A DNA stretch of 63,425 nt from an uncultured Balneolaceae bacterium (GCA_964421495.1 CAYQXO010000001.1:1-63425); one strand, 5' to 3'; counted from the first letter of the stretch, positions 3,238-39,651 are shown. Made by a program: numbers and translations. The notes: generated by a model from the sequence alone, not told the origin.

Positions 3238-3281
3238 TTACAATGGGAAAAAGTACATAGTTGTAGTTTCCCTCTAAGATG

Positions 3282-5989: not shown

Positions 5990-7912
5990 TCATAAAATAA
6001 TTACAAATTTACCGGTTTTGGTGTCACCGTTTTCCTGATTCTCAACCGTATATAGATAAATACCGCTGCTTACCTGTTCGCCCTCCTTATTGGTCAGATT
6101 CCACCCTTTGATTCCCTTATTTTCGTCGTGATGTTGCAAGGATTTGACCTTTCGACCCGACAAGGTGAATATATTAATCGTTGCACGAGCCGGCAGGTTA
6201 ATGAATAGAAGACGGCGGTCAGCCGGCAGCCATACCTCCCGGACAGCAGGGGGCTTTTCCCAGGGATTATCGCCGCGGTGATAGTCCAGGTCTCCCCGGT
6301 ATGGATTGGGGACGACGGACACACTGTCCAGGTTCTGGCGAGGTTCCGTATCGGCAATGATAGTCCAGCTATTGGTGCTGGTAATTTCGGATTCGAGCGG
6401 TGGAAATCCCAGGACGGTATCCTCCCGCGTATAGGCGGTAACTGCATAATGATATTCCTGGTAGGACGACAAATTTCGGTCAACGAATTCGTACTGCAGG
6501 CCGGTGTTAGGACTCAGGCGGTTATTCGGTCGGTCATATTGGGCCAACAACGTCCAATCGGGATTTCTATGCCGGTCGCCGGTCGTTTTGTACACCCGGT
6601 ACCCTTCGAAAGGTTTTTCGGCTCCGTCGAGTCGGTGAGGATCGGTATAGGTTTCGACCTCGTCGGACCATTGGATAATGGCTTTATTGTCCTCCGTTTC
6701 GACCGATATTTCAGGGGAGGGAGGAGGTTCAGGCAGTTCAAAGCCTTGCTCGTGCAGTTTTCTGAGCAGGGATCCATAACGGCGGACCGTCTGAGCGTCG
6801 CTCCCCAGGCTGAGCGCGATGCGAAACTGCAGGGTATCGCCGACCGCAATATCGAAAGGTCCCATGGCATGGAGGTACGGCCGGGTGGTTGAGGTGTCCG
6901 CCGGGTGATCGTCGATATTACCGCTGCTCATAGCCTTGTACCGGTCGGCGTCGTTATAAAGTCCGAGGTTGCCGCCGGAGGAGGCGTGCCACGACCAGGT
7001 AAGGGATTGGGCATTCGTATCAGGCAGGATCTGAGTGCCGATGGCAGAGCCGCCCGACCTGCCGGGAAGGTTGGAATCATGGGTGATTACCTGTTTTTGC
7101 TCCTGGTTGTAACGAATTCGGTCCACACCGCCGGCCTCATCGGATCCGTCGGTAACCCGTTCAATAACGGGAGCAAAGTATGAGGCTATGAATACGTCTT
7201 CGAGGGGGAATTGCGTGGGGGTCACCCGATAGTTGACTACAATAACATTGTCCAGGGGATGGAGGGAATTCCCGTGGCGTAATTCCGGAGTATGGGGTGG
7301 AAGATTTGCAGGATTCGGGGAGTATCCCCAGGAGTAACTTATTTGATACACATCCACATACAAAGGATCGTGATTCGCGTTTTGTCGGGCAGACGGATTA
7401 TAATCATTATAGCGCGTCAGCAGGTCCTGGTGGGAGAAAGGCTCATAGGATTGATAGAAATAATCGGGTGGGGGATTGAATTCATTATGGTGGGTCCGAT
7501 TCGATTCGAACCTGAAAACGCCATCATCTGGATGATCACTGTACCCGTTAAATTCACGATTCGCACTTAAAAATGGAATATGAGTGGTGGTAACCAAGGT
7601 ATCTCCCTGGGGAGTAATGCCTCCAATCCACCATCCCCCGGAACTTATATGCTCGATATCGCTTCCTTTTGGGAATTCGGTGTTTAGTAAATCTGGTATA
7701 TAAATTAATCCCCGGGCGTTGAAACTGCCTGAGTTATTGATGAACTGTTGTACCCGCCCCACGTCGTGCAGAGCGAAATCTTCCGTAATGAATTGGGCTT
7801 TGCTCACATCCGGGTAAACGGTACTGAGAAGGAGAGCAATCCCACACCATTTAAAAAACGTAAATATGCGAGATGTTAGCGTGGGAATAGATCGACCGAC
7901 TCCAAATGGCAT
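5990..7912 (-). CDS. Secreted protein with an FN3-like module and a T9SS C-terminal sorting domain
   Basis: ATG start and signal/anchor. The C-terminus (INIFTLSGRKVKSL...SSGIYLYTVENQENGDTKTGKFVIIL) matches the type-A Por/T9SS sorting-domain pattern. Same strand as, and directly upstream of, the barrel gene. Confidence 0.65.
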   Translation of the reverse strand: MPFGVGRSIPTLTSRIFTFFKWCGIALLLSTVYPDVSKAQFITEDFALHDVGRVQQFINNSGSFNARGLIYIPDLLNTEFPKGSDIEHISSGGWWIGGITPQGDTLVTTTHIPFLSANREFNGYSDHPDDGVFRFESNRTHHNEFNPPPDYFYQSYEPFSHQDLLTRYNDYNPSARQNANHDPLYVDVYQISYSWGYSPNPANLPPHTPELRHGNSLHPLDNVIVVNYRVTPTQFPLEDVFIASYFAPVIERVTDGSDEAGGVDRIRYNQEQKQVITHDSNLPGRSGGSAIGTQILPDTNAQSLTWSWHASSGGNLGLYNDADRYKAMSSGNIDDHPADTSTTRPYLHAMGPFDIAVGDTLQFRIALSLGSDAQTVRRYGSLLRKLHEQGFELPEPPPSPEISVETEDNKAIIQWSDEVETYTDPHRLDGAEKPFEGYRVYKTTGDRHRNPDWTLLAQYDRPNNRLSPNTGLQYEFVDRNLSSYQEYHYAVTAYTREDTVLGFPPLESEITSTNSWTIIADTEPRQNLDSVSVVPNPYRGDLDYHRGDNPWEKPPAVREVWLPADRRLLFINLPARATINIFTLSGRKVKSLQHHDENKGIKGWNLTNKEGEQVSSGIYLYTVENQENGDTKTGKFVIIL

Positions 7913-9093: not shown

Positions 9094-9423
9094 AATGGAG
9101 TAAGAAGTTTTTGCATCTCGTTCCGAATCTTTTCTACGTTCAACGGTGGGGTGATTCGTGTCAAGTGTTCGGGGACCCTCCTTTTTGTAAAAGCCTCTCT
9201 TCTTATTCATATGCAGCTCGATAAATCTGCCTTTTAAAACGGCATTATGAATCGCCTTCCTTTTCTATAGAATTCCATCCCGTTAGATAAAAAATGTGTA
9301 ACCGGACCCGTCCGGTTGGTATCTAATGGGTGCCGTTCAACATTAAAATAATGGGTCAATATTTGTGATCCCGTCATTTGAGGTCTCTATAAATGACGGG
9401 ATTAAACCTCCATCGGGATCAAT

Positions 9424-11505
9424 ATGGATATACTGGTCGATACAAGTACCATTACAAAGGATATGTCCGGTACGGGCGTGTATACGCGCGGGCTGCTTGC
9501 CTCTTTATTATCCCGTAAAGCGGTAGATCGGGTTACGGCGGTAGGGGGCGACTTGTCGCATTTTTCGACGAATAAGGGGGACAAGCTTCATCACGTTTTC
9601 GGAGGTCGTACGGATTGGCATACCCTGTTGAACCGGGATCTGGCGGGTAATCGGCCTAATTTGCAGGCGGATCTTGCCCTGTTTCCCAACTATTTTATGC
9701 CCCCCGGTTTTTCGATTCCTTCGCTGGTAACGGTCCATGATGTATCATTTTTATCGCATCCCCGGTTCTACACCCGTCGGATGAGGCTGTTTTATCGAAA
9801 GCGAATTTTACACAGTTTCAGACGGGCCGACGCCATTCTAACGGTCAGTCAAAGTTCCCGTGACACTATTGCGCGCTATTATCCTGATTACCGTTCCAAA
9901 TTAAAGGTCGTTCGTCCCGGATACCGGTTGGCGGCTGACCGAAGTCGGTTCACTAACGGATCTTCAGCGGGATCGACCCGAACCCTGATATACCTGGGAA
10001 CGGTGGAGCCCCGGAAAAATATACTGTCCATGCTGGAGGGGTTTCAACAGGCGGAGCTGACCGATACGCGGCTTTTTTTAATTGGAAAAATGAATGGGAC
10101 TTACCGGTATGTGCAAAAAGTACGCAAAAAACTTTCTTCCATATCCCATGCAAAGTACCTGGGATACCTACCGGATGAAACGGTTAGATCGTATATATCC
10201 CGGGCTGACGGGGTAGTCAATGTGTCAAAGCTGGAGGGCTTCGGCTTTTCCATATTGGAGGCGCTGGCCGGGGGACTGCCTTGCATGATCTCGGAGGATC
10301 CGGCGCTTATGGAACTTGCAGACGGCCATGCGGTAACGGTGGATGCCCATTCGATAGAATCGATATCAGAGGGTTTTCAAAAGTTGTGCAACCGGGACCA
10401 TTCGGGCGTCGAGCGGTATGCCGAAACAATACGGGATTCTTTGACCTGGGACGCCTTTGGGCGAAAAATGGTGCAACACCTTAAGCAGGTTCAAAAAGAG
10501 CGGTTGCCCGAGATGAAATCCTGTAACATTACGGACCATTCAATTCAGCAGGAAATATTGGAAGCTCTTGCCTACAGCGCCGTATTTGAGGCTCCCATAG
10601 AGAAGAAAAAGCTGTATCAGGGGCTGGGGACGAAGGTGGACTATGCAACTTTTTCCAAACAATTGAATCACCTGAAAAGCAGGGCTCCTTCGCTTGTCGA
10701 ACAGGAGGGATACTTTTACTCGCTCCAACCCTGGGCCCGGGACGGGAAAGAGTATGTAACCGAAAAATACAGAAACCGGCAATTTCTGTTGAAATACCGG
10801 GATGTTTTACGGCGAATTGACCGGCTGCCATTCATTCAAGGCTTGTACTTTTCCGGCGGTTCCGTGCATGGAAGCCAGTTGGAACAGCGAGATCTCGATT
10901 TATTTATTGTGACGCAGTCCAATCGAATATGGCTGGTTTATGCCATGTTAAAAGTGATTTCGAAGTTCCTGATGCACAAATCCGTGCTGTGTTTCAACTA
11001 CCTGGTGGATAGCGAAGCACTGCGCATCCGATACCAGCAGGATTATTTTACGGCTCATCAACTGCTTTACCTTCAACCCGCCCTGCCGGACAAGGAGTAT
11101 CCCGATTTACAAGCACACAATCGATGGATCAGAACATATTTCCCCAATGCTCCTTATTCTGAACTTGAACAGGAAAAGGCAAATGCGACAGCTTCAAATT
11201 CCCGCGATAACTCCGGCAGTTTATGGAATCCGCTCAACCTGCTGAACCTGTTGCTGATGACCTGCTTCAGCTTTGCATGGCGACGGAAGGGGCTTGGCAA
11301 CCTGGAGGGTGGTCTTATGTGGGATGCTCATCGGATCAAACTGCATACCAACGATCATCGACCGTGGATCTATCGAAGATTCAATGAAATTATGCGAGAT
11401 GTAAAAGATCGTACCGGATATCTTTTCGATAGATCAAGTGCACGGTTTGCGGATGGGGAAGAGGCCCCCTCCGTAAAAGAAGACGAGACGGAACTGACGG
11501 GATAA
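9424..11505 (+). CDS. GT4-type glycosyltransferase fused to a C-terminal nucleotidyltransferase-fold-like domain
   Basis: ATG start. The N-terminal ~360 aa carry the GT1/GT4 signature EGFGFSILEALAGGLPCMIS. The C-terminal ~330 aa carry a Pol-beta-type NTase motif, SGGSVHGSQLEQRDLDLFIV (G-S-x9-D-x-D). Confidence 0.7.
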   Translation: MDILVDTSTITKDMSGTGVYTRGLLASLLSRKAVDRVTAVGGDLSHFSTNKGDKLHHVFGGRTDWHTLLNRDLAGNRPNLQADLALFPNYFMPPGFSIPSLVTVHDVSFLSHPRFYTRRMRLFYRKRILHSFRRADAILTVSQSSRDTIARYYPDYRSKLKVVRPGYRLAADRSRFTNGSSAGSTRTLIYLGTVEPRKNILSMLEGFQQAELTDTRLFLIGKMNGTYRYVQKVRKKLSSISHAKYLGYLPDETVRSYISRADGVVNVSKLEGFGFSILEALAGGLPCMISEDPALMELADGHAVTVDAHSIESISEGFQKLCNRDHSGVERYAETIRDSLTWDAFGRKMVQHLKQVQKERLPEMKSCNITDHSIQQEILEALAYSAVFEAPIEKKKLYQGLGTKVDYATFSKQLNHLKSRAPSLVEQEGYFYSLQPWARDGKEYVTEKYRNRQFLLKYRDVLRRIDRLPFIQGLYFSGGSVHGSQLEQRDLDLFIVTQSNRIWLVYAMLKVISKFLMHKSVLCFNYLVDSEALRIRYQQDYFTAHQLLYLQPALPDKEYPDLQAHNRWIRTYFPNAPYSELEQEKANATASNSRDNSGSLWNPLNLLNLLLMTCFSFAWRRKGLGNLEGGLMWDAHRIKLHTNDHRPWIYRRFNEIMRDVKDRTGYLFDRSSARFADGEEAPSVKEDETELTG

Positions 11506-11581
11506 AAAATATACGGCTTTTGACGGACGGGAACGACGGTTCGATTCACAGGGTCAAAAGTTCCAGCACAAATTTCTTGTT

Positions 11582-11712
11582 GAGTACGACGCGAAGCTTA
11601 ACGAGCAGGGCAATTCCCGCGTTAGCGCTCAGAGCGGAGCGATTCCCGCGCAGTGCTCCGAGTGTCAGCGATTTCCGCAATGCGCATCTAGCGAAGTGAC
11701 ATTCGGGCCAGG
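11582..11712. repeat. Dispersed 28-29-bp-unit intergenic repeat, locus R1 (reverse orientation)
   Basis: Contains AATTCCCGCGTTAGCGCTCAGAGCGGAGCGATTCCCGCGCAGTGCTCCGAGTGTCAGCGATTTCCGC. This is the reverse complement of the CGCGGGAATCGCT...GGTGCAC... / ...CTCTGAGCGCT units seen at 25.8, 36.1, 39.6 and 42.6 kb. Confidence 0.8.
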
Positions 11713-11756
11713 CTCCGACAAACTTTTAGGATTTAATTAATCATATCAGCCAGGAT

Positions 11757-11800
11757 TCTCTCGGACTATTTCGGATCGTAGCGAGTAAAAGTCCGAGAGA
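11757..11800. repeat. Hairpin repeat element, copy 2
   Basis: TCTCTCGGACT (11757-11767) pairs perfectly with AGTCCGAGAGA (11790-11800). The loop contains the same TTCGGATCGTAGCGA as copy 1. Confidence 0.8.
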
Positions 11801-11829
11801 TTTCTGGTAAAATTCATAACTCAAAAATT

Positions 11830-13380
11830 ATGTCGGCAAAAATTCTTTTCGGTCAGTCGTATTATCTGCGTTTCGATAACAAACTATGGGAGGCGATGCA
11901 GCCGTATCCGCCGCTGGGTACGCTTTATGCGGCTTCCTATATACGCGAGAAGGGATACGAAGTGGCCATGTTCGACGCTATGCTGGCTGACTCCGAACAA
12001 CGGTGGGCCGAAAAGCTGGATGAGGAGCAGCCCGACTACGCCGTAATTTACGAGGATAATTTCAATTACCTCTCAAAAATGTGTTTGCTGCGGATGCGAA
12101 AATCCGCCTTTAAAATGATTCGCATGGCGAGGGAGCGCGATATACCTGTTTTTGTGTGTGGTTCTGATGCCACGGACCGGGCCGAACAGTATCTCGACCG
12201 CGGTGCCGATTTTATTCTGAAGGGAGAGGGAGAGATTACCCTGGGTCGGCTGCTGGACCATCTGACCCGGGGCGAGCCGTCTTCTCCGATGAATATAAAA
12301 AGTTTGCTGTTCAAGCCTGAAGGAATGAACGAGGTGGTGAAAACCGAGGATCGGAAAAACATCCGGGACCTGGACCGGCTTCCGTTTCCGGCGAGGGATC
12401 TGGTCGATATAGACCGCTACAAGCAGGTCTGGCAGCGGAATCATGGGTATTTTGCGTTGAACATGGTAACGACGCGCGGATGCCCTTTTCATTGCAACTG
12501 GTGTGCCAAGCCGATCTGGGGACAGCGCTACAACGCCCGTTCTCCCGAAAATGTGGTGGAGGAGATGGTGGCAATAAAAAAACGGTACGATCCCGATTAT
12601 ATCTGGTTTGCCGACGATATCATGGGATTGAAGCCGCGCTGGATGGGAAAGTTTGCGGATTTACTGGAGAAGCGCGACATGGAAATCCCTTTTCAGTGTT
12701 TGAATCGCCCCGACCTGCTTCTGCGGGACGGAGATATCAAGTCGCTGGCCCGTGCGGGCTGCGATATGGTGTGGATGGGAGCCGAGTCGGGATCCCAGAA
12801 AGTGCTGGATGCGATGGAAAAGGGGACCAAAGTGGAGCAAATCCATCAAGCGGCCGACCGACTGCATGAGGAGGGAATCAAGGTGGGATTTTTTATTCAA
12901 TTCGGGTATCCCGGCGAGGAGTGGGAGGATATAGAAAAAACCCGGCAATTGATCCGGTCCGCCGAACCCGATGACATCGGTATCTCGGTTTCCTATCCGC
13001 TTCCGGGAACGAAGTTTTATGAACGGGTCAGGGAGCAGTTGGGCGACAAACAGAACTGGGTCGACTCGGAGGACCTGGATATGATGTTCCAGGGTCCGTA
13101 TGACACGCGATTCTATCGAAAATTGCATACGGTGGTCCACCGGGAGTTCATCGTCCGCCGTGCCTTGAAATCGGTCGGTCGCAAGCTCAAACAATCCCCG
13201 CTTCGCTGGTCCCGCCAGGATCTTAAAGAATTGGCGCGTATCGGTTATCATGGCCTGTTATTCCCATTCGACCGACTTCGACTCAATCAACTTGCCCGCA
13301 TACCGAGCGACGGATTTAAACAACTTCCAACCTTTTTGAGCCGGGAAGAAGCTGCTACGCCAACTCCTCAAGTTAAATAG
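11830..13380 (+). CDS. B12-binding-domain radical SAM enzyme (class B-like)
   Basis: ATG start. The N-terminal region resembles a B12-binding Rossmann domain. The radical SAM cluster motif CPFHCNWC is encoded at 12481-12504, followed by a GAESGS-type SAM-binding strand. Confidence 0.8.
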   Translation: MSAKILFGQSYYLRFDNKLWEAMQPYPPLGTLYAASYIREKGYEVAMFDAMLADSEQRWAEKLDEEQPDYAVIYEDNFNYLSKMCLLRMRKSAFKMIRMARERDIPVFVCGSDATDRAEQYLDRGADFILKGEGEITLGRLLDHLTRGEPSSPMNIKSLLFKPEGMNEVVKTEDRKNIRDLDRLPFPARDLVDIDRYKQVWQRNHGYFALNMVTTRGCPFHCNWCAKPIWGQRYNARSPENVVEEMVAIKKRYDPDYIWFADDIMGLKPRWMGKFADLLEKRDMEIPFQCLNRPDLLLRDGDIKSLARAGCDMVWMGAESGSQKVLDAMEKGTKVEQIHQAADRLHEEGIKVGFFIQFGYPGEEWEDIEKTRQLIRSAEPDDIGISVSYPLPGTKFYERVREQLGDKQNWVDSEDLDMMFQGPYDTRFYRKLHTVVHREFIVRRALKSVGRKLKQSPLRWSRQDLKELARIGYHGLLFPFDRLRLNQLARIPSDGFKQLPTFLSREEAATPTPQVK

Positions 13381-13388
13381 GTTGATTT

Positions 13389-14240
13389 ATGTTTCAAGAT
13401 AAAAGGCGTGTTACGGAGCGTTCAATATCACCCGACTTCAGAAAATTACAAGATACACAGCGGGCTTTTGACAAGGTAGCGGCCGATTACGACGGGACGT
13501 TGGGGAACAATGCGTTAATTCAAAGGCTGAGAAAACATTTTTTATCGGTAGTCCGGCAGTATACCACCGCCGGCGATCATCTGTTGGATGTAGGTTGTGG
13601 GACCGGTCTCGATGCGGTAAGCCTGGCTCGGGCCGGTCGGTGGATCACCGCCGTTGATTGGTCCGATGCGATGGTGGGGCGGACCCGAAAAAGAGCTGAA
13701 AAGGAAAATCTGGCCGATCGTGTTTTCGCTCACCAGATGGGAGCCCATGAAATCACCAATTTCCCGTCTGATCACTTTAATGTTATATATTCCGATCTGG
13801 GGGCCCTTAACTGTATTATGAACCAGGATGCATTTGCCCGTCAGTGCCGGCGCGTATTAAAGAGCGAGGGGTACCTTGTTGCCAGCGTTATCGGACGTAT
13901 ATGCCCCTGGGAAATATTCTACTACTTGTTCCGGGGAAAATGGAAGCGGGCGTTGATTCGTCTGAAGCGGGAGCCGGTAGCGGTTAATTTGGAAGGTGAA
14001 AAAGTATGGACCCAATATTTTACGCCGAGAGAATTTATCGATCACTATGAACCATCCTTTGAAGTTACCCGACTTCGGTCGATGAACCTGTTTGCGCCGC
14101 CGCCCTACCTGGTAGCATGGTACCATAAATATCCCCAATGGTTTGCAAGGGGGGAGCAATTGGATGTAAAGTCGGGCGATTGGCCGATTCTGCGCAGCAT
14201 GGGAGACCATTTTCTGGTGGTATTGAAGAAAAAGGATTGA
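13389..14240 (+). CDS. Class I SAM-dependent methyltransferase
   Basis: ATG start 8 nt after the preceding stop. Motif I is LLDVGCGTGLDA. Size and layout match Methyltransf_11/25-type enzymes. Confidence 0.8.
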   Translation: MFQDKRRVTERSISPDFRKLQDTQRAFDKVAADYDGTLGNNALIQRLRKHFLSVVRQYTTAGDHLLDVGCGTGLDAVSLARAGRWITAVDWSDAMVGRTRKRAEKENLADRVFAHQMGAHEITNFPSDHFNVIYSDLGALNCIMNQDAFARQCRRVLKSEGYLVASVIGRICPWEIFYYLFRGKWKRALIRLKREPVAVNLEGEKVWTQYFTPREFIDHYEPSFEVTRLRSMNLFAPPPYLVAWYHKYPQWFARGEQLDVKSGDWPILRSMGDHFLVVLKKKD

Positions 14241-14241
14241 T

Positions 14242-15927
14242 ATGCCGGTAAAAACACCTCATACCGAGACGAATGCCATCCGCCTTGCTTGTCCCCTGTG
14301 CAAAGAGGAACTGGACCGGCAGGGGGAGCAGGGTATATGTCCGCACTGTGGTAGTTCCTACATAAAAGAGGACGGGTATTGGGATATGATGCCTTCGTCC
14401 ACCCGGGAAAAATATGAATCATTTGCAGATAAATACTCCAGGATTCGAAAACGGGAAGGATGGAGTATCGATCGGACCGAATATTTTAATCGGTTACCGT
14501 ATCAGGATCTATCCGGTAATTTTACCCACCTGTGGAAGCGACGAGCCCGACACTGGAAAACATTTCTCAGGCAGGTACTTTATCCGTTGGAAGAGCGGCG
14601 CCAACGTCCCTTGAAAGTACTTGAGGCTGGAACAGGTAACGGGTGGGCAGCCAACAGGTTATCCAAAAGAGGCCATACGGTGTGGGCCGTTGATGTAAAT
14701 GCGGATATAACTGAGGGATTGGGAGCTCACCGACATTACTCCACCCCATTTCAATCCGTCCGGGCCCCTTTCAATCAGTTGCCGTTTCCGAAGCGCGTAT
14801 TTGATCTCGTTTTATTCAACGGTGCATTGCACTACACGAGCTCCCTGGAAGATTCCCTTGATGAAGCCCTCCGGGTGCTCCGGTACGGGGGAGTGCTCGT
14901 TATTATGGACACGCCCGTATATGAAGATGAATCGACCGGCTGTACGATGGTCGAGGAAAAGCTCCGTTACCTGGAGCAATTAGATGCCCCGGAAGACCTG
15001 GTAAATGGAAACATTCATTTTTTGACGTTCGATGAGCTTCGTGATCAAGTTATTAAGCGAAATTGCAACTTACGTTTTTACGAGCCGGGCTTGCCGTGGA
15101 TGGAACGCCTGCGGAAGGGGTGGCGCCGGTTGCAGGGGAGCCGGAAGGAAGCTGAAATGCCCGTTATGGTCATTTGCCGCCGCTGGCCGATTCACCGTAA
15201 AAACCCGGTTCGCTATTCCCTGGTACGTCAAATCAAGGTGGCCAAGCTGCTATGGCTTGTGGTGCTTCGGCTGTATATACGCGTAGTTAAGCGTTTCTAT
15301 TATAATCGGGGGACCACCGAGCAAATATTCGGGTTTGACGTATATGTGGCAAAACAGGTATTCAATCCGGTCCAGTTGCGCTCGGGCAAACTGTTGGCCG
15401 GGGCACTTCAGGATCATAACGGGTTATTTCGAAAAGGGGATACCGTGCTGGAGCTGGGTACCGGAACCGGAATCGGGGCCCTGGCGGCGGCCCGGCAAGG
15501 GGGACATGTAGTGGCTACGGATAAAAATCCCCATGCCGTTCGATGCGCGCAACAAAATGCAGCCCGGAACGGCCTCGGTGAAAAAATTGAGGTCAGGGAG
15601 GGGGACCTGTTTGACCCCCTGGACAAGGAGCAATTCGACAAGATACTGTTCAATCCGCCTTATTATTACGGTACGCCGACCGATTATCTCGACCTGGCGT
15701 GGCAGTCTGAAAATATTCCTCGACGTTTGGCGGAGCAGACAGGCGATTATTTGGCTCCCGACGGAATGCTATTATTGATGCTATCCGATCGGGGAGAGCC
15801 CGAGGAGTTCCTGTGGCAGCTCTGTAAACAGGGCTTTTATATAGAAGAATGGCTCCATCGCGATTATGTAAATGAGATACTAACCCTCTATAAAATTACG
15901 GCAGCAACCCATGATTCTACTATTTAA
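14242..15927 (+). CDS. Three-module protein: Cys4 zinc ribbon, class I methyltransferase, and NPPY-type (HemK/Mtq2-like) methyltransferase
   Basis: ATG lies 1 nt after the preceding stop. The zinc ribbon is CPLCKEEL...CPHCGSSY. The first MTase has motif I VLEAGTGNGW. The second MTase has motif I VLELGTGTGIGA and the catalytic motif FNPPYYYG (nt 15649-15672). Confidence 0.75.
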   Translation: MPVKTPHTETNAIRLACPLCKEELDRQGEQGICPHCGSSYIKEDGYWDMMPSSTREKYESFADKYSRIRKREGWSIDRTEYFNRLPYQDLSGNFTHLWKRRARHWKTFLRQVLYPLEERRQRPLKVLEAGTGNGWAANRLSKRGHTVWAVDVNADITEGLGAHRHYSTPFQSVRAPFNQLPFPKRVFDLVLFNGALHYTSSLEDSLDEALRVLRYGGVLVIMDTPVYEDESTGCTMVEEKLRYLEQLDAPEDLVNGNIHFLTFDELRDQVIKRNCNLRFYEPGLPWMERLRKGWRRLQGSRKEAEMPVMVICRRWPIHRKNPVRYSLVRQIKVAKLLWLVVLRLYIRVVKRFYYNRGTTEQIFGFDVYVAKQVFNPVQLRSGKLLAGALQDHNGLFRKGDTVLELGTGTGIGALAAARQGGHVVATDKNPHAVRCAQQNAARNGLGEKIEVREGDLFDPLDKEQFDKILFNPPYYYGTPTDYLDLAWQSENIPRRLAEQTGDYLAPDGMLLLMLSDRGEPEEFLWQLCKQGFYIEEWLHRDYVNEILTLYKITAATHDSTI

Positions 15928-17392
15928 TCCGCAAAGTAATCCACAGCAAAAACCGGTTTTACCCATCGCCCTGCTAACGCTGGGATCGGTGTTGGAGCGG
16001 GAGTATGACTATCGTATCATCGATGGAAATTTGTCCGATGAGCCCGTGGAGGATATCAGCGAGCAAGTTCGCACCACGGGAGCCGATATCCTGGGCGTGA
16101 CGGTGATGGGCGGTCCGCAGTTGCAGCATGCGGTACCCGCGTGCAGGCGGATCAAGCAAAAACATCCCGGGCTGACGATCGTATGGGGTGGATATTTCCC
16201 GACGCAGCACTACGAAATTTGTCTGAAAGCGCCGTATGTGGATTATGTGGTACGTGGACATGGCGAGTATGTATTTAAGGAGCTGATCGACAAACTAAGG
16301 GGTAAGGGCGATATTCAGGAAATGGAGTGGGACGGAATTGCGTACCGGGATGAACAATCCTCGTTGACGGTCACCGACCCGGTCGCCTCCATCCCGGATC
16401 CGGAGCAGCTTCCTGCTTTGCCGTATCACAAGCTGCCGATTGAGCAATATGTGCGATCAACGTACCTGGGATCCCGAACCCTGTCTCACCATTCCAGCTA
16501 TGGGTGTCCGTTTAAATGTAACTTTTGCGCCGTGGTCAACATGGTGGACGGTAAATGGAAACCCCAATCGGCCGAGCGCACCGCCGGGACTGTAAAGATG
16601 ATGCAGCAAAAGTGGGGTGTTAACGGCATTGAATTCTTTGATAACAATTTTTTCGTTCACGAGAGGCGAACGGCCGAATTCTCCGATCGAATCAGGGATC
16701 TGGACGTCAATTGGTGGGGCGAGGCCCGAGTCGACACGATGATGAAATACCGGGAGGAAACCTGGCGTAAAATGAGGGACAGTGGACTCAAGATGCTGTT
16801 TCTGGGAGCCGAATCCGGGTCCGACGAAACCCTTCAGCGTATGAATAAAGGGGGCAAAGCCTCCACGCAGAAAACCCTGGACCTGGTTCGGCGAATGAAG
16901 CGATTTGGCGTAGTTCCGGAGCTGTCCTTCGTTATGGGCAATCCTCCCGAGCCCGAAAAGGATATCGATCAGACCATCCGGTTTATACGCAAGATTAAGC
17001 GCATTAACCCGGCCGCCGAAATTATCATGTATATGTACACCCCCGTTCCCCGGGCGGGAGAACTTTTCGAGCAGGCCAAGGCCAACGGTTTCGATTTCCC
17101 GGATACGTTGGAAGAGTGGATCAATGAGGAATGGAGGGAATTTTCAACACGGAGAAGTAAGCATATACCGTGGATTACGGACTCCATGCGGCAAAAGGTA
17201 CAAAATTTTGAGCGGGTGTTGAATGCCTATTATCCCACGGTTACCGACCAACGGTTGAACGGCTGGAAGCGAAATTTGCTGAAAACGGTAGGTGGATGGA
17301 GATACCATGCGGAAATTTACGATAACCCTCTGGAGTTGCGTGCGCTGCAAAAATGGATGCGGTATCAGCGACCCGAAACCAGCGGCTTTTAA
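15911..17392 (+). CDS. B12-binding-domain radical SAM enzyme (second copy, divergent from the first)
   Basis: The ATG overlaps the upstream gene by 17 nt. The cluster motif CPFKCNFC is encoded at 16505-16528. The N-terminal region resembles a B12-binding domain. Confidence 0.8.
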   Translation: MILLFNPQSNPQQKPVLPIALLTLGSVLEREYDYRIIDGNLSDEPVEDISEQVRTTGADILGVTVMGGPQLQHAVPACRRIKQKHPGLTIVWGGYFPTQHYEICLKAPYVDYVVRGHGEYVFKELIDKLRGKGDIQEMEWDGIAYRDEQSSLTVTDPVASIPDPEQLPALPYHKLPIEQYVRSTYLGSRTLSHHSSYGCPFKCNFCAVVNMVDGKWKPQSAERTAGTVKMMQQKWGVNGIEFFDNNFFVHERRTAEFSDRIRDLDVNWWGEARVDTMMKYREETWRKMRDSGLKMLFLGAESGSDETLQRMNKGGKASTQKTLDLVRRMKRFGVVPELSFVMGNPPEPEKDIDQTIRFIRKIKRINPAAEIIMYMYTPVPRAGELFEQAKANGFDFPDTLEEWINEEWREFSTRRSKHIPWITDSMRQKVQNFERVLNAYYPTVTDQRLNGWKRNLLKTVGGWRYHAEIYDNPLELRALQKWMRYQRPETSGF

Positions 17393-17398
17393 AGTATA

Positions 17399-17423
17399 GG
17401 GGGGCTCTGGTTGTTAGTCCCCC
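17399..17423. terminator. Possible bidirectional hairpin between convergent genes
   Basis: A G-run (17399-17404) pairs with a C-run (17419-17423) around a 9-nt loop, sitting between the radical SAM stop and the sulfotransferase stop. No clean U-tract, and the stem has a bulge. Confidence 0.25.
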
Positions 17424-17443
17424 GGTAGTATTCGGTGGTAAAA

Positions 17444-18376
17444 TCAACTGTATGGGTTGAGTCCCAGGCGCGACAAAAAGTATGACGCACGAATACGTAG
17501 CATTTCGGGGTTTGCCGGCATTTTTCCCGTTGATAATCTCCCTGTTCCTTCTACATAATTTTCGATTTTTCGAGCTTCCCGGGCAGATAGCACGCGGGTC
17601 CACTTATCCCGGTTCTGAGGCTCTATAGAATATTCAGATCCCGTATGGAATCCCGGTTCATTTCCGTAAGAGCTGTTGGTGACTCCCGGTTCCAGCATTT
17701 CTTTCTGGTAGGGTATGTTTACATAGGAGCAAACCCGCTTTAGTACCTTCCCGGGTTGATGGGTCAGTTGATGATAGGGAACCGTGAGTAGGCGGTGGTT
17801 GTAGCGATTTCTCATCAGTTTGGCGATTTTCAATAATGCGGAAATCCGGTGCAGGGCTTGTTTGCGTGTATCATAGGTGTGGTCGGGTTTATTATGCAAA
17901 TAGGAGGCGACGACCAGTTTTGGGTCCCGCTGCATAAAGAGTAGAGAGGCGTGGGGAAACCAACTCAGAATCAGGGGGATATAGAGGAAGTGATTCGGGG
18001 TTTTTTCGCCATATCGATCGGCCCGGTGATGAGTGGCAAAATAGCGCATGATATGGGCAAAGAGGGAGGTATGGCCGGGAGGCTGCTCACTTAAACTTTT
18101 AATGAGCGCTTCTTTTTGATTGTCAAGGGAGGCCAGGGAGGGGTCGCCCGACGTATGGAAAATTCGATCCACCAGGACAGAGGGATTAATGGAACCGAAA
18201 AAGGAGCCTATAAGACGTCGCTTGCCGAAAATGCGTGGAAAATAGTGGGTTTCCGGGCTGATGTATACGTTGGAATGGGCGTTCAAGCAATATCGCAGCA
18301 GGGTGGTACCCGAACGCGGCGCTCCCATAACGAAGACAGGGTGTTCCATTACAGGCGATGGATAAGTTGATCCCAT
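17444..18376 (-). CDS. Sulfotransferase family protein (PAPS-dependent type)
   Basis: ATG start. The N-terminal 5'-PSB-like loop is VFVMGAPRSGTTLL. Length is about 310 aa, typical of the family. Confidence 0.75.
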   Translation of the reverse strand: MGSTYPSPVMEHPVFVMGAPRSGTTLLRYCLNAHSNVYISPETHYFPRIFGKRRLIGSFFGSINPSVLVDRIFHTSGDPSLASLDNQKEALIKSLSEQPPGHTSLFAHIMRYFATHHRADRYGEKTPNHFLYIPLILSWFPHASLLFMQRDPKLVVASYLHNKPDHTYDTRKQALHRISALLKIAKLMRNRYNHRLLTVPYHQLTHQPGKVLKRVCSYVNIPYQKEMLEPGVTNSSYGNEPGFHTGSEYSIEPQNRDKWTRVLSAREARKIENYVEGTGRLSTGKMPANPEMLRIRASYFLSRLGLNPYS

Positions 18377-18427
18377 TTGAGTTATTGAGGTTTCAAAAAA
18401 GTTGCAAAAGCAGCTATGTAAAAGTCT

Positions 18428-19702
18428 TCACCAATATTTATGAGTTCTGTAAACGGTATATGCGCCTGAGAGCCCCGTGGCGACAAACCGTGCCAGTATG
18501 ATTCCCATGAGCCCGATGTAGGGAAGTAAGATCAACAGTAAAATAAATAAAATGAACGTTTTAATCGCCTCGGCAATCGTTTTTTCGTTTTCTTTTCGCA
18601 CCGAATAAAACAGTAACAGGAAAGGGGTGAGGTAAACTTCCAGAATGACGATGGCCGCCAGCCATTGGAAAAGGTTGGCTGATGTTGCATAGGACGTTCC
18701 GTAAACGAGGGGAATGAGCGGATCAGCAGCGAGGATAACCCCCAATATGAGGAGGCTGATCCAGGTAGAGCGCCCCAGGCTCTTTCGAATGAATTGACGG
18801 CGCCGCTCCCTGGAATCTAGGTTGGAGGTCTTGGGAAGCACGACGGTATATAAGTTATGATTCACCGTACTCAAACGTCGGGACAGGTTGAAGGACAGAG
18901 CGTAGATTCCCACCTGCCAGCTCGATAACCAGAAGGGAATAATCAGGAGGTCCATGCGAATGCCCAATTTCTCGATGATATTGGCCAGCCAGATCCAAAC
19001 TCCCGAACGAGTCAGGCGTTTCCACCCCCGTTTTAATTCGACCGTTGACGGCAGTTCAATCGACCACCGGGGATGAATCCACAGGTACCCGATTACCACA
19101 ATCACCATTTCTTTGACGATCAAAAGAAAGAAGATCGCACTGGTCAGGTTTAGTTGACGGCTAATAGCTAGAATTCCGGTCAACCCGCACGTTACGGCCG
19201 CCCCCGTGATAGTCAGAAGAGAGTAACGGTTAAAATCGGCGTCTACTTGCAGGAAAGTCTTCATGCCGTCGTTTACGGCATTTGCCACAACGGCTATGGC
19301 GGCTAGCTGGATAAAAATGAGGGGTAGCCCGATGGATCCGACGATCGGTATAATAAAATAAGCCGAGAGTCCAATAAGGGCAGCCAATAGTGCGGAGTAT
19401 AAAACCCGAAGCCAGAAATACACACGTCCGAGAGACACCGCCTGTTCCAGGCTTTTCTTCCATTGATCGGGAATGTGATAGGAGGCGGAGGCCGTCAGTC
19501 CGAGGTCGGATATTGCACCGCCAACGGCTATAAAGCTGATGATTACATTGAAATAGCCGTAGTGGTCCACTTTCAATATACGAGCCAACAATAGTCCCGT
19601 GACGAAACTGAATAGTATCTGGACTCCATTACTACCCAGTACTTTTAGCCAGTCCCGGGTGATATCGTCCGGGGAAGAGGTATTTTTGAGTTGAAAGTTC
19701 AA
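18428..19702 (-). CDS. Wzx-like oligosaccharide/polysaccharide flippase (MOP superfamily)
   Basis: About 12 hydrophobic segments across 424 aa, with a layout like polysaccharide biosynthesis (Wzx) proteins. The listed start is TTG, so the exact start is uncertain. Confidence 0.6.
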   Translation of the reverse strand: MNFQLKNTSSPDDITRDWLKVLGSNGVQILFSFVTGLLLARILKVDHYGYFNVIISFIAVGGAISDLGLTASASYHIPDQWKKSLEQAVSLGRVYFWLRVLYSALLAALIGLSAYFIIPIVGSIGLPLIFIQLAAIAVVANAVNDGMKTFLQVDADFNRYSLLTITGAAVTCGLTGILAISRQLNLTSAIFFLLIVKEMVIVVIGYLWIHPRWSIELPSTVELKRGWKRLTRSGVWIWLANIIEKLGIRMDLLIIPFWLSSWQVGIYALSFNLSRRLSTVNHNLYTVVLPKTSNLDSRERRRQFIRKSLGRSTWISLLILGVILAADPLIPLVYGTSYATSANLFQWLAAIVILEVYLTPFLLLFYSVRKENEKTIAEAIKTFILFILLLILLPYIGLMGIILARFVATGLSGAYTVYRTHKYW

Positions 19703-19791
19703 GTCGGGTTATAGACGGATTAAAAGAGCATGGAGTAACTGCCAATCAAAATATAAATAGTTTCAAAGGGATCTATAACGGAAATAACCCG

Positions 19792-19828
19792 AAATAAAAA
19801 GGGAGCGTCCCTCCCAAAGGTCGCTCCC
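19792..19828 (-). terminator. Rho-independent terminator downstream of the Toprim-region gene
   Basis: On the minus strand, GGGAGCG (19828-19822), a loop, and CGCTCCC (19807-19801) are followed by TTTTTATTT. Confidence 0.6.
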
Positions 19829-19910
19829 TCGCTTTGTTATGCGCCAAGCAATTTTATCGTTTGCAAGGTGACAGGGTGCCGGTGAAGAAAAAGGGGCAAT
19901 CCTGAATGAC

Positions 19911-20282
19911 CTACTCGCCCAATATCTCGTTCAGCCAGGAGGCAAGTGTATCCGGATCAAAAGAGGAGGAATCGAGTTGTTGACGAATATGGGTAATAAA
20001 CGACTTCAAAGCCCTGTAATTATGGATCTCCGATGCCATCTTTTTCAGTGCAGGACCGGGTAGAATATTTCCCTCGACTCCGCATTTAATCAGGTTGTTT
20101 TTCAACAGGTGATCGGTGCAGACTCCGATGCGGGAGGATCTGATGGATTTCCAGCTCGTCAAACGTTGCATTAGATCTCCCATCGTCATATAGGGAGAGA
20201 GGCTGTATTGATCCTGCCCATGCTTGGTGGATCCTTCCCCTGCATAAAAACGGTATTCCGAGTTGGATTCTCGGTATCGCAA
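19911..20282 (-). CDS. Hypothetical ORF, probably the C-terminal continuation of the upstream Toprim ORF in the -1 frame
   Basis: The only listed start is TTG. The same frame is open further upstream to nt 20371, immediately after an in-frame TGA inside the Toprim ORF. No recognisable motif. Confidence 0.4.
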   Translation of the reverse strand: MRYRESNSEYRFYAGEGSTKHGQDQYSLSPYMTMGDLMQRLTSWKSIRSSRIGVCTDHLLKNNLIKCGVEGNILPGPALKKMASEIHNYRALKSFITHIRQQLDSSSFDPDTLASWLNEILGE

Positions 20283-21894: not shown

Positions 21895-24800
21895 TCAATT
21901 CATGGGCATCTGGTCAACCTGCTTTTTGTTTGCTTCTTCCGTGGTCGGAAATCTCAGGCGATCCATGGTCATTTCATTGACCTGGGCGGCCAGGTCTTTG
22001 GCTTCCTGTTCTTTTTCAGCCATGAAATAGATCCGTTGTATGTAAATTAAACGGCTGGATGCATAGGATACTTGCTGAGCCTGGTTTTTACGAGAGGATT
22101 TAACCTGTTTGAGTCTATTCTCAAGTTTTTGCTGAGTTGAATAATTGGCGTTTTTCTTTGCCTGTTTTATCTGGCTTTGCAGCTGGCTGATTTGGCCCTG
22201 TACCTCATCATATCTGTTCATGCGGTAATCGAGGTCATCTAAAAGTTTCGATTCCGCTCTTTTCGCAAGATCATAGCCCCGGTCAATCGCACCAAGCCTG
22301 CCATAACGGTATGCGTAGCTTACCATGGAACTCATATCTCCCTGAACCGATTTAAAGGGAATTTTATCCTGTCCCCATTTCAACCAGTGCAAGGCGCTGT
22401 CCGGCTGGTTTCGATCTATGTATTCATTAGCCAGTTGTGTAAAGGAAAAACGATAATTGTCAAGCATCCGGCGAATGTTATGATTAAAGTAAACACCCGG
22501 ATTATCCATTTCCCTGAATTTAAACTTTTTCAATCGTTTGGTGTGGATTTCCGGTTTAATATATCCATAACTGGCATCCGGGTGTTCATTAGGTACCACC
22601 CGATAGGCTTGTCCCTCCAGCCTGAAGTAGTTTTGCAGATTCATCTGGCTTTCCCGCGCGACGGTAGTGGCAAAGTAGACGGGACGTAACCAGTTATTGT
22701 TTTTGAGGATATCCAGGATGATGTCATCCTGAATACGGGTGTAGTATAGTTTTTGGCCATTTCGATTCTGACCCAGGTAGTGACCTTCATAATGAAAGCT
22801 GACTTCATCGTCGAGCGAATCCACCGGTGTGCCGAAATCAATACCGTCGGCATAGATGTTGAAGGTTGTATCGGAGGTGACCCCGATGTTCCTGCGATAC
22901 TGGGCCGGATTACCGAATGATTGCTTCAACAATTCTTTATTAACCGGGATGGTATGCGTTTGAGGCTGATAAAAATCATCGGGCGAATTGAAACTGAACT
23001 TGCTGTCCATGTTTTCGATTTCCTCGTCGGGAATCGTAATGGGCAGGGGGGGAGAGTCATTCGACCACTGATTTTTCAACTGTTTAATATACCAGTCGGT
23101 ATTGAGCAGGCTAAGGCAAACCACCCGAACGTCGGTGCGGACCCCTTCTACTTCCTGGGCATACCAGAGAGGGAAGGTGTCGTTGTCTCCATTGGTGAAT
23201 ATAATGGAGTTGGGAGCGGTGGATTGTAGCAGGTTTTCAGCGTAGTCGGCGGCTACGTAGCGGTTACTGCGATCATGATCATCAAAGTTTTGATATCCCA
23301 TGAGAAAGGGGACGCCCAGGAATGTGGCTAATAGCACCCCGTAAGAGGCCAACTGAGCGAGACGCACTTTCCCCATGTAGTGTTTAACAAGTTGGATGAG
23401 TCCGGTGGCCCCCAGCCCGATCCAGATAGAGTAGGCAAAGAACGATCCCACATAGGCATAGTCCCGCTCGCGGGGCTGGTAGGGCGTTTGGTTTAGATAC
23501 AGGATAATCGCCAGGCCCGTCATGAAGAAAAGGACAAATACGGAGAGGGCCCTTTTCCAGTCATTCTGGAAGTGAAATATTAAACCGAAGATACCCAGCA
23601 GGAAGGGCAGGTAGTAATAGCTGTTGTGCGCGGGATTGTCTTCATTGCGACTTTGCGAGAATCCCGCCTGCCAGCCGGCATCCTGCACATCCGATTCACG
23701 TCCAATGAACTGCCAGTTGAAGTATCGGACATACATATGCTTGATCTGATAATCCAGGAAAAACTCCCAGTCGCTGTCATACTCGGCGTATTTTTGCTGA
23801 TGGCGTGGCTGGGAAGAATAGCGGCGGGGGAACCAGACTTCCTCATCCCGGTTGATTCCTTCCTGCGAATTATCGTAGGTGTTCCCACTTAGAAGAGGAG
23901 TATCGCCATATTGCTCTCGCTGCAGGTAGCTTTCAAATGACTCAACCGTCTCCGGATCATTTTCGTCAATCGGGGGATCGGCCATTGAGCGAATGAAAAT
24001 AATGGAATAGGCGCTGTATCCCAGTAAAATTACGGCATAGCTGACGAAAACTATATTGGCGAGTCGATATTGCTTTTTATGGGTGTAATATATGCCCAGA
24101 CCCACCGTAAGAAAAATGAGAAAGAAGTAGGTAACAGGTCCCACCAGACCATAGGTTGCAAAATTTATATTGTCTATTAAACCGGGCAACTTAATTACAG
24201 TAAACGGATATATGGCCAGAAACGTCACAGAAGCTATTCCGGCCATAACCAGGAATGAGGTGATATTGAACTCGTATTTCCTGAAATACACTATAATGGC
24301 TACGAAAAACAGGGCCAGTAAATTGAGCAGGTGAACGCCAAGGGCAATCCCGAAGCAAAAAGCAATGACCACCAGCCAGCGTTCACTGCGCGGCTCGTCG
24401 GCTTCGTCAGCCCACTTTAATGCTAACCACACCACGATAGCCGTGAAAAACATCGAGAGGGCATACATTTCGGTTTCGACCGCATTAAACCAGAAGCTGT
24501 CGGTTACGGCAAACGTAAAAGCACCGATCATGGCACCGCCATAGGTTGAAATCAAGTCGACGCGATCATACTGGTCGGGATGACCTTTCCACTGGGTTAT
24601 CAAGCGGACTATAATCAAATAGAGCAGCATGATGGTCAGGGCGGAGGAAAGCGCACTGATAAAGTTGACACTGACGGCTACCCAGAAGGTCGGCATGAAC
24701 ATGGAAAAAAGCCGGCCCAAAAGAATAAAGAAGGGGTTGCCCGGGGGGTGGGGGACTTCAAGTTTGTATGCGACCGCAATGTACTCGCCTGCGTCCCAGA

Positions 24801-25665: not shown

Positions 25666-25785
25666 ATAAACCTGTGTAGCGGGTTAGCATCCAAGATTTA
25701 TTTCTTTGACTATGTGTAACTGATATAAAACCGGCATAGTATAACAGCGGCAAATTATTATGGTTTTTAAAAGACTCTAGTCCGT

Positions 25786-25869
25786 ATTGCGCTCACGCGG
25801 GAATCGCTAACGCTCGGTGCACTTCGCGGGTGACGCTTCGCTCTGAGCTCACCAAGAAATTCGGGCTAG
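25786..25869. repeat. Dispersed 28-29-bp-unit intergenic repeat, locus R2
   Basis: ATTGCGCTCA-CGCGGGAATCGCTAACGCTCGGTGCACTT-CGCGGGTGACGCTTCGCTCTGAGCTCACC-AAGAAATTCGGGCTAG. The last 4 nt overlap the stop codon of the tricorn-like gene. Confidence 0.8.
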
Positions 25870-36023: not shown

Positions 36024-36038
36024 CCCCGCCTAACCTGG

Positions 36039-36191
36039 ATTGCGCTGCGCGGGAATCGCTGACGTTCGGTGCACTTCGTGGGTAACGCTTCGCTCTGAGC
36101 GCTAACGCGGGAATCGCTTCGCTCGGTGCACCTCGTGGGCGACGTTTTACTCTGAGCGCTGACGCGGGTGGTACTTCGTTCTGTACTTACC
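36039..36191. repeat. Dispersed 28-29-bp-unit intergenic repeat, locus R3 (largest copy, five tandem units)
   Basis: ATTGCGCTG is followed by units of 29, 29, 28, 29 and 29 nt starting at 36048. Units alternate between CG(C/T)GGG....TCGGTGCAC(T/C)T and CGTGGG....CTCTGAGCGCT(A/G)A types. The array ends in CTGTACTTACC. Confidence 0.85.
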
Positions 36192-39613: not shown

Positions 39614-39651
39614 TGTCTGTTCGCTGTAACTTCTCGTTTATTCGTTGCTCA

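Follow-up and report, generated by a model that had tools for sequence, protein, structure and literature searches.

A modular cassette of B12-type radical SAM enzymes and methyltransferases with a putative new partner family, linked to surface glycan assembly

We describe a gene cassette present in a 63,425-nucleotide (nt) stretch of DNA from an uncultured Balneolaceae bacterium (GCA_964421495.1, CAYQXO010000001.1:1-63425), hereafter called the window. The cassette is modular and widespread. It combines two B12-type radical S-adenosylmethionine (SAM) proteins, rSAM1 and rSAM2, with three methyltransferase domains, MTA, MTB and MTC, and with an unannotated domain, X. We consider it rather likely that the cassette tailors a lipid-linked glycan or glycoconjugate of the cell surface at the cytoplasmic face of the membrane, before export, and the product is probably a heavily methylated, so far undescribed sugar decoration. 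In the window, four open reading frames (ORFs) on the + strand are packed between 11830 and 17392, with gaps of 8 nt and 1 nt and then a 17-nt overlap, a layout that the initial annotation had described and that our ORF table bears out. They code for rSAM1 (516 residues, 11830-13380), MTA (283 residues, 13389-14240), an MTB-MTC fusion (561 residues, 14242-15927) and rSAM2 (493 residues, 15911-17392). The initial annotation had bounded the system by these four genes, which proved too narrow, as the cassette begins upstream, in the C-terminal half of a glycosyltransferase fusion.

The distribution of rSAM1 indicates how common such cassettes are. Relatives that are 55-62% identical to it were found in at least 578 species genomes in a scan of one genome per species, and the search yielded at least 8000 candidates, the top 120 clusters of which are all full-length, at about 60% identity. 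Most carriers are Chloroflexota (Anaerolineae, Ardenticatenaceae, Caldilineales, Thermomicrobiales and Chloroflexia). The others include Acidobacteriota, KSB1, one Rhodothermales chromosome, a Cytophagia metagenome-assembled genome (MAG) and a Bacteroidetes MAG. Genomes of Sphaerobacter, Nitrolancea, Herpetosiphonaceae and Thermoanaerobaculaceae are also among those with matches. The ground initially proposed for a survey, namely Balneolales, Rhodothermales and Bacteroidota, was thus off-centre.

Our sample of rSAM1 loci comprises 80 loci returned out of all carriers. The window proteins, mapped onto 86 loci, reveal a gene grammar of the form X - rSAM1 - (rSAM3) - (rSAM4) - MTA - MTB - MTC - rSAM2, in which the round brackets mark radical SAM genes that some cassettes lack. 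The exact window order, rSAM1-MTA-MTB-MTC-rSAM2, occurs in five loci (L001, L042, L051, L074 and L084), in Chloroflexota and in Thermoanaerobaculaceae, and the same order with insertions is found in many other loci. Among the 51 loci with at least 6 kb of downstream sequence, MTA is present in 39, MTB in 22, MTC in 19 and rSAM2 in 20; all four are found in 13 of them, and 28 harbour extra radical SAM genes. As the same gene order recurs across phyla, the association is far beyond chance, and the co-conservation that had been put forward as a check on the system is thus observed. The composition of individual cassettes varies further. A KSB1 locus (L005, 9665-17662) has four B12-radical SAM genes and four methyltransferase genes in a row, with MTB and MTC as separate genes, which are fused in L001. 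In another locus (L090), a gene for a GT87 membrane glycosyltransferase (11728-12978) is inserted between two radical SAM genes, inside the cassette.

X, rather than any of the methyltransferases, appears to be the closest associate of rSAM1. In other genomes, rSAM1 is directly preceded by an ORF of about 300 residues that lacks annotation, often with a 4-nt overlap. This stand-alone ORF, exemplified by P0121, is homologous to residues 361-693 of the window fusion, encoded at 10504-11505 on the + strand, downstream of a family 4 glycosyltransferase (GT4) domain. A stop-to-stop scan with a hidden Markov model of 74 non-redundant loci located X on the same strand and upstream of rSAM1 in 64, at no more than 700 nt in 61 of these and abutting or overlapping it in 41. 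Two look-ups that started from X again led to X followed by a B12-radical SAM gene and methyltransferase genes. A word-indexed search with the window X as single query returned nothing, and its relatives were retrieved only with a profile built from locus-derived sequences. The X family has 6720 representatives at 50% identity, 2572 of them at E ≤ 1e-30, and all its members are labelled 'hypothetical'. X is best described as a putative new partner family, and as the most constant partner of rSAM1.

Several weak but concordant lines suggest that X consists of a winged helix and a Pol-beta/MNT-type (minimal nucleotidyltransferase) core, followed in the window by a helical C-terminal region. X matches no NCBIfam model and, as a single sequence, no PDB entry, and its only Pfam match, to NTP_transf_2 (PF01909), is below threshold (E 0.092, 13.6 bits versus 21). 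Nevertheless, residues G118, D130 and D132 do not vary among 60 sequences. They are part of a G-S-x11-D-x-D motif (10855-10899, +) that fits the Pol-beta/MNT pattern hG[GS]x9-13Dh[DE]h, with predicted strands at residues 111-117 and 131-137 of the model. Compared with PDB sequences, the X profile matched only an MNT antitoxin and a minimal nucleotidyltransferase (1WOT), over the motif, with E 0.07. In Foldseek searches with an AlphaFold2 model of X (predicted local distance difference test score, pLDDT, 74), the top matches are MNT AMPylases, with probabilities of 0.94-0.96, a best E of 0.016 and template modelling (TM) scores of 0.43-0.48 on the target. Lower matches, with probabilities of 0.1-0.5, are DrrA and the sugar adenylyltransferases AAD(9)/AadA. 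The N-terminus of the model matches winged-helix regulators.

Fusion proteins connect X to the assembly of surface glycans. Fusions of X and GT4 with the domain order of the window are found in a KSB1 locus (L006) and in P0248 and P0330, and the opposite order occurs in L050 and P0310 (hhalign probability 100). The GT4 halves of the window and L050 fusions are 27% identical (E 3e-29). Further fusion partners of X are a GT2 domain (P0249) and a membrane protein with Wzy_C (P0287). As X has joined three kinds of glycan-assembly protein in independent fusions, there is strong evidence that it works on a membrane glycan intermediate, and the same holds, by linkage, for rSAM1 and the other cassette proteins.

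The neighbourhoods of the cassette also agree with a glycan context. The commonest non-cassette neighbours are a MOP flippase (19 loci), two families of GT4 proteins (16 and 11 loci), two of Wzy_C proteins (16 and 7 loci) and a GT2 protein (7 loci); the 19-locus Polysacc_synt flippase family does not cluster with the window's own flippase. An orphan rSAM1 gene in L055 adjoins a flippase gene, and L072 has the same layout. An FkbM-type methylase gene lies 3' of the cassette in the Rhodothermales locus, and a flippase gene is found in that position in L082. The suggestion of a glycan or glycolipid context, first made from the flanks of the window genes, thus generalises to flippases, Wzy_C, GT4 and GT2 proteins that recur near the cassette. 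The model for the glyco_rSAM_CFB glycosyltransferase of Bacteroidota (TIGR04157) reached 23.6 bits versus 400.

The class B architecture of the two radical SAM proteins, a B12-binding domain followed by a radical SAM core, is well supported by sequence, and for rSAM1 by a structural model as well. Both proteins exceed the gathering scores of PF02310 (B12-binding; 39.0 bits for rSAM1 and 62.4 for rSAM2 versus 32.1) and PF04055 (Radical_SAM; 81 and 64.9 bits versus 29.5), which substantiates the B12-binding-like N-terminal regions noticed initially. The predicted B12-binding domain spans residues 25-141 and the radical SAM core residues 212-375 in rSAM1, and residues 17-125 and 196-359, respectively, in rSAM2. 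Both CxxxCxxC cluster motifs were found by translation exactly where the initial annotation had placed them, CPFHCNWC at 12481-12504 and CPFKCNFC at 16505-16528. The two proteins are divergent, as it had stated, with a mutual identity of 25%. Cys218, Cys222 and Cys225 of rSAM1 are invariant in 15 orthologues, and the mean column identity among these 15 members from several phyla is 76%. Cobalamin binding by class B enzymes is base-off and follows no universal motif (PMC12931638). Orthologues of rSAM2 are 55-62% identical and are nearly always encoded directly after MTC.

Neither protein belongs to a characterised group. The best NCBIfam model for rSAM1 is 'lipid biosynthesis B12-binding/radical SAM protein' (131 bits versus a cut-off of 360), followed by BchE (129 versus 481), HpnJ (118 versus 578) and PhpK (109 versus 600). 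For rSAM2, BchE comes first (136.7 versus 481), ahead of HpnJ (127) and Sden_1168 (122 versus 575). None of the cut-offs of the equivalog models BchE, HpnJ, HpnR, PhpK, Sden_1168 and MgmA/MJ_0865 is reached by either protein, and both are also far under those of the ladderane radical SAM, BzaD, ApyD, KedN5 and TsrM-type models. Close orthologues in a characterised pathway, which would have spoken against a new system, are therefore not apparent, every NCBIfam score being far under its cut-off. In phmmer searches, the nearest solved structures to rSAM1 are MgmA (9CCB, E 1.6e-18, 19% identity) and AprD4, and those nearest to rSAM2 are AprD4, OxsB, MgmA and TokK. The 9CCB structure is that of MgmA, the glutamine C-methylase of methyl-coenzyme M reductase (PMC11796369). 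In Foldseek searches, both domains of the rSAM1 AlphaFold model (pLDDT 77) are covered by alignments with TsrM, MgmA, OxsB and TokK, with E values from 3e-17 to 5e-14. rSAM1 also has a conserved C-terminal tail, E-A-A-A-T-P-T-P-Q, which reads EEAATPTPQ in the window (residues 506-514, 13345-13371) and follows a long helical region where model confidence is low. It is possible that X or some other partner docks onto this tail.

All three methyltransferase domains of the initial annotation were recovered with Pfam, one in the 283-residue protein and two in the 561-residue protein, the first of these two at residues 127-221. MTA and MTB are predicted to be generic class I enzymes. MTA, a single-domain class I SAM methyltransferase (Methyltransf_25/11/31, E about 1e-16), meets no NCBIfam cut-off. 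Its orthologues are 43-49% identical in cassettes of the window architecture. MTA comes in two subtypes, and the window-like one, with these identities, is found mostly in cassettes without rSAM3 and rSAM4. The MTB-MTC fusion has an N-terminal Cys4 zinc ribbon (CPLC...CPHC, 14290-14349), followed by the MTB class I domain (residues ~101-276, ~14542-15069) and by a HemK/MTS-like domain, MTC (residues ~362-553, ~15325-15900), with an NPPY motif at residues 471-474 (15652-15663). MTC scores 103.3 bits versus a cut-off of 87 for TIGR00537 (HemK2/MTQ2 family) and, with its NPPY motif, qualifies as a member of that family; the model is a 'hypothetical equivalog' and does not imply a protein-glutamine substrate. 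Score and motif suggest that MTC methylates the nitrogen of an amide or amine, and the constant pairing of MTC with rSAM2 argues for a substrate other than a protein glutamine. In the Cytophagia MAG locus (L034), where X is absent, a NodU/CmcH-type carbamoyltransferase (2325-4097; Carbam_trans_N, E 9e-100) is encoded two genes 5' of rSAM1, in the region usually occupied by X, with an MTA-like methyltransferase gene (4078-5007) between them. This arrangement hints at a carbamoyl or amide nitrogen as a possible target of MTC. Automatic annotation would probably label the MTB-MTC protein as a methylase of the release-factor type, a name that is likely to mislead here.

In the mechanism that we favour, the GT4 domain would put a sugar on a lipid-linked acceptor. 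X, whose presumed catalytic aspartates are intact and which is presumably active, would nucleotidylate, present or otherwise handle this sugar or a substituent, with the ANT/AadA sugar O-nucleotidyltransferases as a precedent, and would pass the substrate to its near-obligate partner rSAM1. rSAM1, and then rSAM2 where present, might perform cobalamin-dependent radical alkylation of unactivated carbons or some other rearrangement. MTA and MTB would install O- or N-methyl groups, and MTC, given its NPPY motif, would transfer a methyl group onto the nitrogen of an amide or amino group. A sulfotransferase would, in this genome, sulfate the product, and a Wzx-type flippase would export it. We infer the chemistry (C-methylation along with O/N-methylation), the substrate and the order of the steps, and likewise that the radical SAM proteins are methylases. 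From the MTC-rSAM2 pairing, it is tempting to speculate that rSAM2 may act on or beside the group installed by MTC; the iterative extension of a methyl group by CysS-type enzymes (listed in PMC12931638) is reportedly a precedent for such an idea.

A bolder proposal can be put forward only tentatively. The cassette could perform the first cobalamin-radical SAM chemistry on a primary cell-envelope glycan, widespread in Chloroflexota, and generate a multiply C-alkylated, N/O-methylated sugar or cap. On methyl groups installed by the class I enzymes, iterative additions might build up, for example, ethyl, isopropyl or tert-butyl-like groups. X would then represent a new nucleotidyltransferase family whose role is to activate the rSAM1 substrate or to tether it.

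A number of observations weigh against glycan tailoring as we propose it. About 14% of the rSAM1 loci are devoid of X, and some rSAM1 copies are orphans. The evidence for a nucleotidyltransferase is coherent, but each of its lines is weak (Foldseek E 0.016, Pfam E 0.09, PDB profile E 0.07). AprD4 matches both radical SAM proteins; it has a similar fold, binds no cobalamin and acts as a dehydratase. Because of these matches, cobalamin use and methylation by rSAM1 and rSAM2 are not guaranteed. Finally, the window island lacks sugar-nucleotide biosynthesis genes, an initiating phosphoglycosyl transferase and Wzy, and it therefore does not define the glycan itself; no carrier with a chemically characterised glycan was identified.

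Alternatively, the enzymes might work not on a sugar but on a non-sugar appendage, such as a poly-methylated amino-acid, amide, carbamoyl or phosphono moiety, which X would activate as a nucleotide conjugate and which would be joined to the glycan later. The radical SAM proteins and methyltransferases would in that case modify a nucleotide-tethered molecule, as Fom3 does with CMP-hydroxyethylphosphonate. We find this variant of our main proposal unlikely. The nucleotidyltransferase-like character of X, the tightest partner of rSAM1, the resemblance of MTC to HemK2/MTQ2-like amide-N methylases with an NPPY motif, and the presence of a carbamoyltransferase in a locus without X (L034) would all be in line with it. 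The P-methylase models PhpK (109 bits) and Sden_1168 (122 bits) score level with any other, but these scores are far under cut-offs of 575-600, and precursor genes (PEP mutase, amino-acid ligase, cytidylyltransferase) are not conserved in the loci. Moreover, Pol-beta-type nucleotidyltransferases are known mainly as modifiers of hydroxyls of finished molecules and not as activators of precursors.

It is quite improbable that the cassette modifies a membrane lipid or the head group of a glycolipid, as HpnJ does with hopanoid-GlcN, or in the way of the B12-radical SAM proteins of ladderane and other lipid pathways. The flippase would then move the lipid, and the glycosyltransferases would build its head group. 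Such a target would suit the single glycosyltransferase and flippase of the window island, and the resemblance of the window GT4 domain to the glycolipid synthases GlcN-PG synthase, IagA/BgsA and MGlcDAG synthase. The best NCBIfam model for rSAM1 is that of a lipid biosynthesis protein (131 bits), and HpnJ scores 118 bits with rSAM1 and 127 with rSAM2; however, these values are far under the cut-offs of 360-577 and no better than those for BchE. Furthermore, Wzy_C polymerase/ligase-like genes and several glycosyltransferase genes are common near the cassette and, together with the X-Wzy_C fusion, indicate a polymer or oligosaccharide, and no lipid-synthesis genes are conserved nearby.

We deem it very unlikely that the substrate is a ribosomal peptide or a protein whose gene lies elsewhere, and that it undergoes radical C-methylation and amide N-methylation, as in polytheonamide or methyl-coenzyme M reductase, while the glycosyltransferases glycosylate the same protein. 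Wzy_C domains also occur in O-oligosaccharyltransferases, which would accommodate a protein target, and MTC scores above the cut-off of the HemK2/MTQ2 protein-glutamine methylases. In addition, the solved structure closest to rSAM1 by sequence is that of MgmA, a glutamine C-methylase (PMC11796369), but the likeness is remote (E 1.6e-18, 19% identity) and equalled by that to TsrM. The ApyD model, one of those for radical SAM proteins that act on ribosomal peptides, yields 93 and 119 bits versus 750. Clustering of small ORFs in 87 loci gave no conserved ORF of 25-99 residues outside the known genes, the clusters obtained being artefacts of antisense or alternate reading frames within X and MTA. 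Nor was a recognition element, a protease or a transporter typical of ribosomally synthesised and post-translationally modified peptides (RiPPs) found. The initial remark that no RiPP precursor is evident thus holds across the 87 loci as well as in the spacer 5' of rSAM1, which has no credible candidate.

Modification of nucleotides or nucleic acids, possibly for defence, by a nucleotidyltransferase, an NPPY methylase of the adenine/guanine-N type, a zinc-ribbon methylase resembling RlmA and radical SAM proteins is highly improbable: NPPY is also a motif of N6-adenine methylases, X is MNT-like and PADLOC reports mad2 matches for MTB-MTC (150 bits) and MTA (64 bits), but these matches cover the generic methyltransferase fold, with MTA and MTB-MTC on the same profile region, PADLOC otherwise gives only a weak PDC-M51A match and none for the GT4-X fusion or rSAM1, the neighbours are glycan-assembly genes rather than nucleases or sensors, and the island has no mobile-element or compositional signature. 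A link to defence through the 'GT4-conflict' Pfam family was also considered and discarded, as neither the family nor its source paper includes radical SAM enzymes.

Tailoring of a lipid-linked glycan thus remains our preferred reading, and the remainder of the window island can be described with it in mind. The 693-residue GT4-X fusion (9424-11505, +) starts with the GT4 domain (residues 1-360, 9424-10503; Glycos_transf_1, E 9.8e-17, with Glyco_trans_1_4 and Glyco_transf_4). On the other side of the cassette, genes for a convergent sulfotransferase (17444-18376, -; Sulfotransfer_3, E 3.4e-29) and a MOP/Wzx-type flippase (18428-19702, -; Polysacc_synt_3, E 2e-21) are found; Pfam searches thus identified the same flanks as the initial annotation. 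The sulfotransferase is an accessory specific to the window and was found in none of 86 related loci. As unrelated genes (DUF2231, a Toprim protein and YbeY) lie beyond these bounds, the island spans 9424-19702. About 2 kb past the flippase gene, with the YbeY and Toprim protein genes in between, a 1005-residue TMEM260-like protein (protein O-mannosyltransferase-like, GT-C; E 8.5e-66) is encoded at 21895-24912 (-), which may or may not share a glycosylation pathway with the cassette.

We looked for signs of recent horizontal transfer and rejected that idea. The G+C content of the island (0.49-0.53) and that of its third codon positions (0.53-0.62) are inside the range of the other window genes, and neither a mobile-element nor a compositional signature was detected in the island. 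As the best cassette matches sit in other phyla, an older transfer is suggested by these sequence comparisons. Elsewhere in the window, a 640-residue protein (5990-7912, -) has a C-terminal sorting domain of the type IX secretion system (TIGR04183, 24.8 bits versus a cut-off of 23). The host therefore possesses type IX secretion and is a Bacteroidota/Rhodothermota-like organism. Such a host, set against best matches in Chloroflexota and Acidobacteriota, is consistent with an old horizontal transfer.

X and rSAM1 are separated in the window by a spacer of 324 nt (11506-11829). Most other genomes have no such gap, the two genes being adjacent or overlapping, and the spacer therefore looks like an insertion of a dispersed mini-repeat. 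As noticed initially, it contains repeats and no plausible gene. It has three 29-nt tandem units (11603-11680), and its ORFs are limited to one of 59 residues with a TTG start on the + strand and to some of 21-59 residues on the - strand. Tandem 29-nt units with the core GCGATTCCCGCG form an intergenic mini-repeat with 17 matches in the window (at most 2 mismatches) versus 7.6 expected, a number attained in none of 100 shuffles. Further sites are found at 25750-25850 (-), 36020-36140 (-) and 39535-39645 (+), and the four sites align well. The mini-repeat looks REP-like. A CRISPR array was considered and rejected, the period being too short and the units too few. The spacer also contains a 21-nt inverted repeat (11750-11770 and 11787-11807; 86% complementary, 16-nt loop), 23 nt 5' of the rSAM1 start codon, which may form a regulatory hairpin or belong to the inserted repeat element. 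Rfam searches gave no match for the spacer or its inverted repeat, and no cobalamin, SAM or other riboswitch anywhere in 9100-20000. As a promoter and terminator scan returned counts no higher than those of shuffled controls, such signals do not set the bounds of the operon.

B12-dependent radical SAM proteins are one of the largest unexplored groups of enzymes. They form more than 100 sequence groups, the largest of which are still uncharacterised, according to a 2026 review whose text makes no mention of polysaccharide, glycan, sugar or lipid substrates (PMC12931638). In this work, an anonymous operon has become a defined, testable system, with at least 578 species, a fixed grammar, the X family and a link to glycan assembly through fusion proteins. 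We rate the enzyme superfamilies and cytoplasmic tailoring before flipping as known, and their widespread combination with a new partner family as new. If our proposal is correct, Chloroflexota, Acidobacteriota and KSB1, which are abundant environmental phyla, carry an undescribed, heavily alkylated surface sugar. Such a sugar would have a bearing on surface hydrophobicity and on recognition by phages or predators, and it might also matter for sediment biomarkers based on methylated sugars. Enzymologists would gain a soluble, well-conserved set of B12-radical SAM proteins with an obvious partner protein for reconstitution.

We found no description of the cassette in the literature. The initial annotation had not recognised the gene order as a characterised pathway either, and no equivalog cut-off is met. 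To judge from sequence, none of the closest relatives, be they functional, structural or relatives of X, is an orthologue. In its proposed function, the cassette comes closest to sugar-tailoring B12-radical SAM enzymes such as GenK, GenD1, Fms7 and the moenomycin enzyme MoeK5, which have the same N-terminal B12-binding and radical SAM architecture (PMC12931638). As in the cassette, GenK/MoeK5-type pathways place B12-radical SAM genes beside those for class I N/O-methyltransferases and GT4-type glycosyltransferases, and their substrates are sugars. However, those pathways belong to secondary-metabolite clusters of actinomycetes, whereas the cassette is found in Wzx/Wzy-type surface-glycan loci, is widespread both vertically and horizontally, and comprises up to four radical SAM proteins and the partner X. 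There is no sequence-level orthology to KedN5, PhpK and the like, whose scores are far under cut-off, and GenK and Fom3 are not among the listed model matches. The HpnI/HpnK/HpnJ system is akin to our proposal in that a glycosyltransferase loads a sugar on a lipid and the B12-radical SAM protein HpnJ remodels this sugar at the cytoplasmic face. It differs in that it has neither methyltransferases nor X; the HpnJ cut-off of 577.6 is not reached, and the cassette loci have no conserved deacetylase or hopanoid genes.

In structure, MgmA/QCMT (9CCB) and TsrM (6WTE/6WTF) have the same two-domain cobalamin-radical SAM fold as rSAM1 (Foldseek E 3e-17 and 6.5e-17, TM about 0.6) at 18-19% identity. MgmA acts on a protein glutamine and TsrM on free tryptophan, and neither context is found in the cassette. 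X itself appears most closely related to the MNT and ANT proteins, exemplified by the antitoxin AMPylase MntA and by AadA and AAD(9), with which it has the G-S-x(9-13)-D-x-D motif and a predicted alpha/beta core in common, a similarity at the detection limit. ANT enzymes nucleotidylate sugar hydroxyls. Unlike these proteins, X has an additional N-terminal winged helix and C-terminal CPNY, W-E-M-x-R-K and C-K-G-H-F motifs, and it has no HEPN partner. Lastly, WbdD-type O-antigen capping, which relies on a kinase and a methyltransferase, involves ABC transporters and no radical SAM enzymes, unlike the cassette. The likeness is one of logic, as phospho-transfer is coupled there to SAM-dependent methylation on a lipid-linked glycan before export.

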